The notes beneath the pieces are model-generated. The model saw nothing but the letters and a program-made list of their open reading frames with translations, made no database searches and had not been told where the DNA came from. The position numbers and the translations under genes are program-made. From Escherichia coli (GTDB lineage Bacteria > Pseudomonadota > Gammaproteobacteria > Enterobacterales > Enterobacteriaceae), in NCBI RefSeq assembly GCF_016026235.1, contig NZ_CP065613.1: a DNA stretch of 64,000 nucleotides, one strand, 5' to 3'. This document shows, piece after piece, positions 29,155 through 33,862 of the stretch (positions within the stretch are counted from its first letter, which is position 1; each line of letters begins with the position of its first letter).

Positions 29155-29193
29155 CGATTTTCCCCGTTCCCGGCTGCTGTACCGGGAACGTAT

Positions 29194-30150
29194 TTAATTC
29201 CCCTGCATCGCCCGCATTCTTGCCGCATCTTCCCCCGGCGTCACACCGAAGTAACGTTTAAACTCACGGCTAAATTGCGATGCGCTTTCATAGCCGACGC
29301 GCATCGCTGCTGCGCTGGCCTTCATGCCGTCATGGATGATCATCATCCGCGCCTTATGCAGACGGTAATTCTTCAAATACTGCAACGGCGAGGTGCTGGT
29401 GACAGACTTAAAATTATGGTGGAACGCCGATACGCTCATATTGGCTTCTGCCGCCAGTTGCTCGACGCTCAGGTTTTCGGTGTATTTATTCTCAATCCGT
29501 TTCAGCACGCGGCTAATCAGACTGAAGTGAGTCTGGCGACTGACCAGCGCCAGTAACGCGCCGCCGCAAGGTCCGGTCAGCACGTAGTACAGAATTTCGC
29601 GGATGATCTGTTTGCCGAGAATACGCGCATCCAGTGGTCGCTCCATCACGTCGAGTAACCGCTCCGCCGCGCATAAAATCTCTTCTGATAACGTGGCGGA
29701 GTTAATCCCGCTGGCTGCCATCGACGGCTGGAAATGCTCATCTTCGCCAATGTCCATCAACAGTTCCTGTAACTGCAAAATATCGACATTGAGACGCAAC
29801 CCTGCCAGCGGCACCTCTGACGTGGCATAGGTTTCGCACTCAAACGGCAACGGCACCGTCAGCAGCAGGTATTCATTGGCATCATAACGAAACACGCGTT
29901 CATTGATATAACCGATTTTATGTCCGGAAAAGAGAATTATGATGCCAGGCTCGTACATCACCGGTGTACGTGCGAAAGGCGTCTCGCCATACAACAAACG
30001 CACATCGGGCAACAGTTCTGACAAACTATTTTCTTTATTTTTCAGTTTATTAACTTTATCCGCCAGCAAGCGGCAAATCTCTTCACGTTTCATATCGCGT
30101 AATTTCTTAGGAATAATGCGGCAATTTGATTGTGCGCAATTTTGTAGCAT
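29194..30150 (-). CDS. yqhC: AraC-family transcriptional activator
   Basis: 318 aa from [10 protein letters not shown]; C-terminal AraC-type HTH; divergent from yqhD. Confidence 0.75.
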
Positions 30151-30170
30151 TTCTCCAGCACTCTGGAGAA
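30151..30170. promoter_or_regulatory. 8-4-8 inverted repeat ttctccag-cact-ctggagaa in the yqhC/yqhD divergent region
   Basis: perfect palindrome read directly from sequence. Confidence 0.35.
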
Positions 30171-30286
30171 ATAGGCAAGACATTGGCAGAAATGAGCATT
30201 GAGAGCCAGGGCGCTGGCGATCACAATGAAAAACATCAGGCGGATCGTTCTCTGCCCTCATATTGGCCCAGCAAAGGGAGCAAGTA

Positions 30287-31450
30287 ATGAACAACTTTAA
30301 TCTGCACACCCCAACCCGCATTCTGTTTGGTAAAGGCGCAATCGCTGGTTTACGCGAACAAATTCCTCACGATGCTCGCGTATTGATTACCTACGGCGGC
30401 GGCAGCGTGAAAAAAACCGGCGTTCTCGATCAAGTTCTGGATGCCCTGAAAGGCATGGACGTGCTGGAATTTGGCGGTATTGAGCCAAACCCGGCTTATG
30501 AAACGCTGATGAACGCCGTGAAACTGGTTCGCGAACAGAAAGTGACTTTCCTGCTGGCGGTTGGCGGCGGTTCTGTACTGGACGGCACCAAATTTATCGC
30601 CGCAGCGGCTAACTATCCGGAAAATATCGATCCGTGGCACATTCTGCAAACGGGCGGTAAAGAGATTAAAAGCGCCATCCCGATGGGCTGTGTGCTGACG
30701 CTGCCAGCAACCGGTTCAGAATCCAACGCCGGTGCGGTGATCTCCCGTAAAACCACAGGCGATAAGCAGGCGTTCCATTCTGCCCATGTTCAGCCGGTAT
30801 TTGCCGTGCTCGATCCGGTTTATACCTACACCCTGCCGCCGCGTCAGGTGGCTAACGGCGTAGTGGACGCCTTTGTACACACCGTGGAACAGTATGTTAC
30901 CAAACCGGTTGATGCCAAAATTCAGGACCGTTTCGCAGAAGGCATTTTGCTGACGCTGATCGAAGATGGTCCGAAAGCCCTGAAAGAGCCAGAAAACTAC
31001 GATGTGCGCGCCAACGTCATGTGGGCGGCGACTCAGGCGCTGAACGGTTTGATTGGCGCAGGCGTACCGCAGGACTGGGCAACGCATATGCTGGGCCACG
31101 AACTGACTGCGATGCACGGTCTGGATCACGCGCAAACACTGGCTATCGTCCTGCCTGCACTGTGGAATGAAAAACGCGATACCAAGCGCGCTAAGCTGCT
31201 GCAATATGCTGAACGCGTCTGGAACATCACTGAAGGTTCCGACGATGAGCGTATTGACGCCGCGATTGCCGCAACCCGCAATTTCTTTGAGCAATTAGGC
31301 GTGCCTACCCACCTCTCCGACTACGGTCTGGACGGCAGCTCCATCCCGGCTTTGCTGAAAAAACTGGAAGAGCACGGCATGACCCAACTGGGCGAAAATC
31401 ATGACATTACGCTGGATGTCAGCCGCCGTATATACGAAGCCGCCCGCTAA
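30287..31450 (+). CDS. yqhD: NADPH-dependent aldehyde reductase (iron-containing alcohol dehydrogenase family)
   Basis: 387 aa from [17 protein letters not shown]. Confidence 0.9.
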
Positions 31451-31554
31451 GCTTTTTACGCCTCAAACTTTCGTTTTCGGGCATTTCGTCCAGACTTAAG
31501 TTCACAACACCTCACCGGAGCCTGCTCCGGTGAGTTCATATAAAGGAGGAACGT

Positions 31555-32382
31555 ATGGCTAATCCAACCGTTATTAAGCTACAGGATGGCAATGTCATGC
31601 CCCAGTTGGGACTGGGCGTCTGGCAAGCAAGTAATGAGGAAGTAATCACCGCCATTCAAAAAGCGTTAGAAGTGGGTTATCGCTCGATTGATACCGCCGC
31701 GGCCTATAAGAACGAAGAAGGTGTCGGCAAAGCCCTGAAAAATGCCTCAGTCAACAGAGAAGAACTGTTCATCACCACTAAGCTGTGGAACGACGACCAC
31801 AAGCGCCCCCGCGAAGCCCTGCTCGACAGCCTGAAAAAACTACAGCTTGATTATATCGACCTCTACTTAATGCACTGGCCCGTTCCCGCTATCGACCATT
31901 ATGTCGAAGCATGGAAAGGCATGATCGAATTGCAAAAAGAGGGATTAATCAAAAGCATCGGCGTGTGCAACTTCCAGATCCATCACCTGCAACGCCTGAT
32001 TGATGAAACTGGCGTGACGCCTGTGATAAACCAGATCGAACTTCATCCGCTGATGCAACAACGCCAGCTACACGCCTGGAACGCGACACACAAAATCCAG
32101 ACCGAATCCTGGAGCCCATTAGCGCAAGGAGGGAAAGGCGTTTTCGATCAGAAAGTCATTCGCGATCTGGCAGATAAATACGGCAAAACCCCGGCGCAGA
32201 TTGTTATCCGCTGGCATCTGGATAGCGGCCTGGTGGTGATCCCGAAATCGGTCACACCTTCACGTATTGCCGAAAACTTTGATGTCTGGGATTTCCGTCT
32301 CGACAAAGACGAACTCGGCGAAATTGCAAAACTCGATCAGGGCAAGCGTCTCGGTCCCGATCCTGACCAGTTCGGCGGCTAA
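31555..32382 (+). CDS. dkgA: 2,5-diketo-D-gluconate reductase A (aldo-keto reductase)
   Basis: 275 aa. Confidence 0.9.
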   Translation: MANPTVIKLQDGNVMPQLGLGVWQASNEEVITAIQKALEVGYRSIDTAAAYKNEEGVGKALKNASVNREELFITTKLWNDDHKRPREALLDSLKKLQLDYIDLYLMHWPVPAIDHYVEAWKGMIELQKEGLIKSIGVCNFQIHHLQRLIDETGVTPVINQIELHPLMQQRQLHAWNATHKIQTESWSPLAQGGKGVFDQKVIRDLADKYGKTPAQIVIRWHLDSGLVVIPKSVTPSRIAENFDVWDFRLDKDELGEIAKLDQGKRLGPDPDQFGG

Positions 32383-33814: not shown

Positions 33815-33821
33815 TAAAAAA

Positions 33822-33862
33822 ATCCCCGGCAGCATGTCAGTTGCCGGGGATTTTTTTTAACG
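33822..33862. terminator. bidirectional rho-independent terminator
   Basis: ccccggcagcatgtcagttgccgggg hairpin followed by attttttttt. Confidence 0.65.

Follow-up and report, generated by a model that had tools for sequence, protein, structure and literature searches.

Class II activator sites of the AraC/XylS type lie close against the promoters that they serve: AraC occupies araI1-I2 at pBAD, XylS a site at Pm from about -70 to -35, and phased repeats abutting the -35 element are the familiar layout of this class. In the melAB-melR and araC-araBAD regions, an extra site for the activator, MelR or AraC, overlaps the promoter of the regulator's own gene.

The yqhC-yqhD region of Escherichia coli resembles both arrangements in part. 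YqhC belongs to the AraC family and has two HTH motifs, its gene is divergent from its target, and on the yqhD side helically phased repeats with a 21-bp periodicity lead up to a weak promoter, the proximal repeat abutting or overlapping the -35 element. The region differs from the AraC and XylS sites in that the yqhD operator, as assigned from its sequence, would consist of three repeats of ~10.5 bp instead of two 17-bp half-sites, and in that an additional, inverted AGAAA box is found in the left arm of the palindrome described here. As in the MelR and AraC systems, the intergenic region is shared, and the recognition sequence recurs in part on the regulator side, where this additional copy could mediate autoregulation. 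MelR and AraC repress their own genes, however, whereas the sole data on YqhC suggest positive autoregulation, and binding of YqhC to the left arm would be a prediction from the DNA sequence.

The palindrome is already known from the literature on the yqhD promoter. A '24-bp palindrome' with two 10-bp repeating units is given as a predicted potential YqhC-binding sequence in a passage of PMC10991953 that cites Lee et al. 2010, and Frazao et al. 2018 (PMC6115493) cite the same work. In this literature the palindrome lies between yqhC and the yqhD -35 element and is proposed alongside a 'SoxS-like' box. The published gel shifts are reported to have included a binding-site mutation (Lee et al. 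2010, J Bacteriol 192:4205). Genome-wide, gSELEX gave a single YqhC site in the yqhC-yqhD spacer. The palindrome so described has the same sequence as the one studied here; this literature treats it as a predicted site, and we have dissected it by comparison between species.

Results

A perfect 10-4-10 palindrome in the yqhC-yqhD control region

The window analysed is a stretch of 64,000 nucleotides of E. coli DNA, whose positions are converted to those of NC_000913.3 by adding 3,125,068. The locus is the E. coli yghB / yqhC / yqhD-dkgA region; over 1,301 positions compared with MG1655 it has 6 differences and is free of indels. On the minus strand, yqhC (299 aa plus stop, 29194..30093) encodes a regulator with AraC_N and HTH_18/HTH_AraC domains; yqhD is encoded on the plus strand (30287..31450).

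The 8-4-8 palindrome ttctccag-cact-ctggagaa reported in the first-pass annotation is present at 30151-30170 exactly as claimed, and it does lie within the divergent control region of the two genes. Its arms are longer than first noted. A perfect 10-4-10 palindrome, ATTTCTCCAG-CACT-CTGGAGAAAT, with 10-nt arms of 100% complementarity and a gap of 4 nt, spans positions 30149-30172, corresponds to the published '24-bp palindrome' and occupies -85 to -62 of the yqhD promoter. It is located outside the yqhD mRNA, which starts at 30234, and covers the A and the T of the ATG from which the legacy yqhC annotation begins (30150..30148).

Perfect arms of at least 10 bp with loops of 0-10 nt were found at 11 loci of the window, versus 0.7 in mononucleotide shuffles, and 8-bp arms gave 60 hits, nested ones counted, versus 12.9 +/- 4.7 in dinucleotide shuffles. 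Most of the other perfect palindromes resemble terminator hairpins, and the largest, at 33816-33857, has 16-bp arms and a 10-nt loop. A perfect hairpin, CGTTCCCGG-CTGCTGTA-CCGGGAACG, at 29165-29190 between the convergent yghB and yqhC genes is probably a shared bidirectional terminator. Another, CTCACCGGAGC-CT-GCTCCGGTGAG, with perfect 11-bp arms (31511-31534), follows the yqhD stop codon and precedes the Shine-Dalgarno sequence of dkgA. It could be a partial terminator or a processing/stability element, even though a single transcript (b3011|b3012) has been reported for yqhD-dkgA.

The two arms are conserved independently of their complementarity

For comparison, 80 loci were fetched and combined with the window into a set of 81, with one genome per species from ~25 genera of Enterobacteriaceae, each aligned from the conserved yqhC Met codon to the yqhD ATG. 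The two genes are divergent in all 81 loci and in 5 further Enterobacterales loci. Conservation across enterobacteria, the check suggested in the first-pass annotation, was found to be pronounced: the 24-bp segment keeps its length in 81/81 species, and both arms are strongly conserved. The left-arm core TTTCTCCAG (30150..30158, no strand assigned) is the most conserved block of the whole region, with a mean column identity of 0.989, and 79/81 species share the same left arm, TTCTCCAG. The right arm (mean identity 0.927) reads GGAGAAA in most species, GTAGAAA in 19, and AGAGAAA or GGAGGAA in a few. The five central bases reach an identity of just 0.56.

Changes in the right arm are in every case left without compensation in the left arm; the 19 species with CTGTAGAAA, for example, have an unaltered TTTCTCC. 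All seven core pairs are complementary in 46 of the 81 species, and exactly one pair is broken, without compensation, in the other 35. A formal count of pairs gave a covariation score of 0.029. Shuffling gave a mean of 0.027, the slid controls reached or exceeded the observed score, and 3 of 730 cells had double changes. Since the arms are conserved and do not covary, their complementarity is that of two conserved sequence blocks and not the outcome of selection for pairing. The palindrome is conserved and functional at the DNA level.

The conserved block extends well beyond the palindrome, running from TTTCTCCAG through tGgAGAAAt, GGCAAGACA, GGCAG and AATGnGCATTGAGaG to CCACAAT. Population SNPs within E. 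coli (ATCC 11775) fall outside all of the conserved blocks.

The right arm opens a candidate YqhC operator that reaches the yqhD promoter

The yqhD promoter is well defined. Its published -35 element TTGAGA (30199..30204, plus strand) is present in 81/81 species and its published -10 element CACAAT (30222..30227, plus strand) in 78/81. The TSS of yqhD-dkgA maps to 30234 on the plus strand (NC_000913.3 3,155,302; b3011|b3012 transcript in the SMRT-Cappable-seq supplement). Upstream of the -35 element we found three helically phased direct repeats, AGAAATAGGCA / AGACATTGGCA / AGAAATGAGCA, at 30167..30198 on the plus strand (-67 to -36 of PyqhD). A repeat search placed the starts of these 11-nt copies at 30167, 30178 and 30188, spaced by 11 and 10 bp, and a self-comparison of the profile, independent of that search, gave 21, 11 and 10 bp as the best offsets. 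The repeats are conserved at 0.93-0.985. The first begins within the right arm of the palindrome, and the last ends at 30198, directly against the -35 element.

The right arm TGGAGAAAT (30164..30172, plus strand), which holds the first AGAAAT box, would accordingly form the promoter-distal end of an operator of roughly 40 bp, whose three phased repeats would reach the yqhD -35 element. This block combines several features of an AraC/XylS-type operator: an adjacent gene for an AraC-family regulator, helical phasing of direct repeats, a proximal repeat next to the -35 element and co-occurrence across lineages.

This co-occurrence was seen in outgroups. The pattern GGAnnAWTnGGCAA...GTGCATTG is present beside YqhC-like genes in 9 outgroup loci, the proteins being 45-67% identical, and the right arm is kept beside such regulators in Yersinia, Serratia, Pectobacterium, Dickeya, Brenneria and Roseateles and in the loci L083 and L084. 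Joined to GGCAA...GTGCATTG, it persists at protein identities of 45-57%, Roseateles and L083 being among these cases. The syntenic orthologues of Yersinia, Serratia, Pectobacterium, Dickeya and Brenneria have the operator block and, at an unchanged distance, a TTTCT resembling the left arm; TTTCT-N12-AGAAA is therefore the deeply conserved dyad of Enterobacterales with a divergent yqhC. Farther away, the left arm is missing. In Roseateles and the related metagenomic contig L083, a regulator gene (57% identity) lies downstream of, and co-directional with, an ADH gene whose upstream region contains AATAGGCAAAACAcgGGCAG...GTGCATTGAAGA...TCACAAT and no inverted left arm. L084 (52% identity, divergent Zn-ADH gene) likewise has GGAGGATTGGGCAAGG...GTGCATTGAG and lacks the left arm, and in L085 and L086 the sequence GGATTAGGCAA adjoins the regulator gene. 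The operator thus occurs beside YqhC-like regulators even in Betaproteobacteria, without the left arm, which in this sample is confined to Enterobacterales with a divergent yqhC. Because the right arm is present where the left arm is absent, it is to be counted as part of the recognition sequence that accompanies the YqhC family.

The pair 30155:30166 varies in this set. E. coli has C-G and Serratia A-T; in the Citrobacter freundii group the right-hand base breaks the pair, and in Yersinia the left-hand base does, TTTCTAC standing uncompensated opposite GGAGAAA. Such a mixture is what independent drift of the two positions would give.

In Pectobacterium and Dickeya, a nitroreductase gene (L087 1509-2249; L088 1584-2324) lies between the conserved YqhC operator and yqhD, and the first gene of the regulon therefore differs from that of E. 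coli.

The left arm as -35 region of a candidate yqhC promoter

On the minus strand the left arm reads CTGGAGAAA. It contains TGGAGA (30152..30157, minus strand; 79/81 species), a candidate -35 element of yqhC, followed in 81/81 species by a 17-bp spacer and a -10-like hexamer (30134..30129), CACAAT in E. coli. This hexamer is CACAAT in 40 species, CACACT in 23, CACTAT in 6 and a minor variant in the remainder; A2 and T6 are invariant in all 81. The identity of the -10-like block is 0.90, against 0.55-0.65 in its flanks. TGGAGA-17-CACAAT is the sole leftward promoter-like arrangement that recurs across species and the best leftward candidate in E. coli between 30100 and 30420. A relaxed scan for a leftward promoter upstream of the palindrome or in the yqhD N-terminus, as in the Huerta/Collado-Vides prediction cited by Pereira et al., yielded none better. 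We infer that the left arm is the -35 region of a yqhC promoter starting near 30122. The searchable Cappable-seq, Kim 2012 (E. coli and Klebsiella) and SMRT-Cappable-seq data returned the yqhD TSS alone and none for yqhC (b3010).

The -10 regions at 30125-30134 on the yqhC side and at 30222-30231 on the yqhD side, 87 bp apart, match each other at 90% in inverted orientation (TTTGATTGTG / CACAATGAAA; CACAATcAAA versus CACAATgAAA). They give the control region a mirror-image layout with back-to-back promoters.

The translation start of yqhC

At least four starts have been annotated for yqhC (29194-30321, minus strand), giving proteins of 375 and 355 aa, both reaching into yqhD, of 318 aa and of 299 aa. 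The palindrome abuts the start codon only in the 318-aa annotation retained in NC_000913.3, with its Met1 ATG at 30148..30150 on the minus strand. The PGAP RefSeq records place the start at window position 30093 and the protein at 299 aa, and for this start the adjacency reported at first does not hold.

The comparison favours the shorter form. An ATG at the Met1 position is found in 7 of the 81 species, and even within E. coli the strain E69 has ATA there. The Met20 ATG (30091..30093, minus strand) is present in 81/81, and the Met is invariant in the protein alignment. Residues 1-19 of the 318-aa form are not conserved, the Pfam AraC_N match starts at residue 47 of that form, and an in-frame stop codon lies at most 18 codons upstream of Met20 in 59/81 species. 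Upstream of Met20 a GGAG is present at a distance of 9-11 nt in 47/81; it is absent in Escherichia, Citrobacter and Salmonella. Coding for an N-terminal extension was rejected as the cause of the conservation, since upstream of Met20 there are stop codons and the translation is not conserved. It is very probable that the 318-aa start is incorrect, which we regard as the most useful new point of the analysis, and Met20 is the probable true start. The Met1 ATG would fall in the spacer of the candidate promoter and is probably not a start.

The first-pass annotation had questioned the chosen start on the ground that the palindrome covers the expected ribosome-binding region. The doubt was justified, as the invariance of Met20, the rarity of the Met1 ATG, the in-frame stops and the PGAP start all indicate, but the ground was not: the GGAG beside Met1 is part of a DNA element that is conserved in species without an ATG at this position. 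The choice of start has affected strain construction, since the Keio yqhC deletion, built on the longest form, takes out part of the yqhD N-terminus (Pereira et al.).

Published binding and reporter data

Pereira et al. 2021 observed that YqhC shifts a 151-bp probe and does not bind control DNA. From the primers we mapped this probe to 30136-30286, where it holds all the proposed elements, and the unbound control to ~30260-30400. YqhC therefore binds somewhere within 30136-30286, and the probe spans the palindrome and the repeats alike. In their PyqhC-GFP fusion the GFP ATG replaces Met1, and the fusion was more active in strains with constitutive YqhC. Its insert comprises 30151-30367 only, without the proposed yqhC -10 element. 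The result implies that some transcription enters the palindrome from upstream, with translation from the Met1 ATG, and it suggests positive autoregulation of yqhC. The activity is unexplained by the TGGAGA-17-CACAAT promoter model.

ChIP-exo coordinates were moved from NC_000913.2 to NC_000913.3 with an offset of +1,978, which we take to be that of the yqhD locus. Thus placed, the strongest YqhC site of Gao et al. 2021 (NC_000913.2 3,153,318-3,153,348; S/N 18.66), obtained in uninduced cells in M9 glucose and flagged as bound by RNA polymerase, falls within a few bp of 30228..30258, with no strand assigned. This peak is at the region of the yqhD TSS and overlaps neither the palindrome nor the operator proposed here. 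YqhC binding hence maps, in this experiment, away from the palindrome, an outcome that the first-pass annotation had counted against its own proposal. We suspect, as an assumption, that the displaced peak may reflect cross-linking of a YqhC-polymerase complex.

The yqhD mRNA has a hairpin close to its 5' end, GGCGGA-TCGTTC-TCTGCC at 30239-30256 (MG1655 has A at 30242), which is located inside the ChIP-exo peak and is followed by a pyrimidine/T-rich tract. In 70/81 Enterobacteriaceae the yqhD leader has a comparable stem at +3 to +10, and these stems comprise 34 distinct sequences (GGCAG/CTGCC, GGTAGC/GCTACC and GGCGGTGA/TCATCGCC among them), a diversity that suggests real covariation. When the yqhD 5' UTRs were aligned with MAFFT, RNAalifold gave no structure, owing to indels. 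The hairpin may be an mRNA-stabilising or attenuating structure.

YqhC has been described as a homologue of SoxS with a 'SoxS-like' target, and in E. coli the loop of the palindrome has GCAC followed by AAA, as in a marbox. The consensus AYnGCACnnWnnRYYAAAY had no match with up to 3 mismatches in 29596-31864, and the GCAC lies in the variable centre (identity 0.56); a marbox/SoxS box coinciding with the palindrome was rejected.

Discussion

The interpretation that we favour, by a modest measure above even chances, is that the palindrome is a composite of two control elements placed back to back between divergent, mirror-image sigma-70 promoters. The right arm, CTGGAGAAAT, would be the promoter-distal end of the YqhC operator, whose repeats AGAAATAGGCA, AGACATTGGCA and AGAAATGAGCA, ~10.5 bp each, run from -67 to -36 into the yqhD -35 element. 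The DNA-binding domains of YqhC, with two HTH motifs each, would occupy successive major grooves and touch RNA polymerase at -35. The left arm, TTTCTCCAG, would carry the opposite-strand yqhC -35-like TGGAGA together with an inverted AGAAA box. YqhC bound to the central operator would then be ~9 bp from the yqhC -35 element and could control yqhC itself in addition to yqhD-dkgA. The ATG beside the palindrome would be promoter spacer, and translation would most likely begin at Met20 (30093). This model builds on the observed sequence, the pattern of conservation, the absence of covariation, the mapped yqhD TSS and the binding of YqhC somewhere within 30136-30286, and from these we infer the bases contacted by YqhC, the yqhC promoter with its TSS, and autoregulation through this layout. 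Against it stand the failure to find a yqhC TSS in the data searched, the GFP fusion of Pereira et al., the ChIP-exo peak outside the operator, the lack of a marbox-type match and the invariance of nine nucleotides of the left arm, which exceeds the needs of a -35 hexamer.

This excess of conservation is one of the points that speak for a genuinely symmetric operator to which a dimer of YqhC or of a second regulator would bind as one unit, a reading that we consider doubtful although it is the most serious competitor. AraC can bind half-sites in either orientation, and in a variant of this reading the palindrome would be an autoregulatory or uninduced 'off-state' site, like the switching half-site arrangements of AraC; a dimer bound there would occlude the yqhC -35 element and the distal end of the activator site. 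The dyad is a perfect 10 bp per arm in Escherichia, all Enterobacterales with a divergent yqhC retain TTTCT-N12-AGAAA at this spacing, the palindrome is the best inverted-profile match of the region, and the two-sided change in Serratia (A-T for C-G) preserves the symmetry. The literature, too, proposes the palindrome as a YqhC site. However, 35 of the 81 species tolerate one uncompensated broken core pair, Roseateles, L083 and L084 retain the right arm without the left, the right arm extends into GGCAAGACA and the left arm has no equivalent extension, and the ChIP-exo signal is located elsewhere. Of the candidate operator put forward in the first-pass annotation, for YqhC autoregulation or yqhD activation, there remains a plausible protein-binding or promoter element at a place where the literature also proposes a YqhC site. 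The symmetric unit as operator is unsupported or at best unproven: only the right arm follows the regulators into distant lineages, and the ChIP-exo peak, the one in vivo signal near base-pair resolution, is at ~30228-30258.

Less probable again, in our estimate, is a combined scenario in which YqhC toggles in the manner of AraC, the 318-aa start of K-12 b3010 is wrong and its ATG lies upstream of the true yqhC TSS. In one state, YqhC would sit on the inverted AGAAA pair formed by both arms, its own -35 element being covered and yqhD not activated. With aldehydes it would move to the direct repeats, which are phased and extend to the yqhD -35 element.

Formation of an RNA hairpin in the yqhC 5' leader, which would hide the GGAG and ATG of Met1 and control translation or force the use of Met20, appears very improbable, as the mismatches between the arms are never compensated. 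The hairpin is stable in E. coli (-14.3 kcal/mol, z = -3.7), its 3' arm holds a GGAG two bases ahead of the ATG, and transcripts can cross the palindrome, to judge from the GFP fusion of Pereira et al. But its stability is only -7.4 kcal/mol in the Citrobacter freundii group, covariation is absent, and a search of Rfam gave no match to the palindrome region, on which ground a known RNA family was rejected. In addition, the Met1 ATG is restricted to 7/81 species, with stop codons after it in most, the bases of the arms are conserved even where there is nothing to translate, and transcription from the conserved promoter signature would begin downstream of the palindrome. The comparative data largely refute this reading. 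An incidental or structural origin, as intrinsic terminator, REP-like element or chance, merits next to no credence. The window does contain many perfect palindromes of such a size, mainly terminator hairpins, but this one has no T-run, and a scan of 29950-30450 called no terminator-like site, so that a terminator was rejected. The palindrome precedes both transcription units; across 81 species its length is invariant and its sequence nearly so, whereas flanks and centre vary; and, as TTTCTCC-N8-GGAGAAA, it occurs a single time in the window.

YqhC and PyqhD have been put to use for sensing aldehydes, and work on engineered tolerance to furfural, glutaraldehyde and vanillin has repeatedly targeted them. 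The bases of the operator, the site of the yqhC promoter and the real start codon affect the design of reporters, knock-outs and expression constructs, and the published constructs include the 318-aa form and reporters fused at the Met1 ATG. Beyond this practical use the composite arrangement brings no new principle; it would be an ordinary mechanism that follows a familiar pattern of the AraC family.
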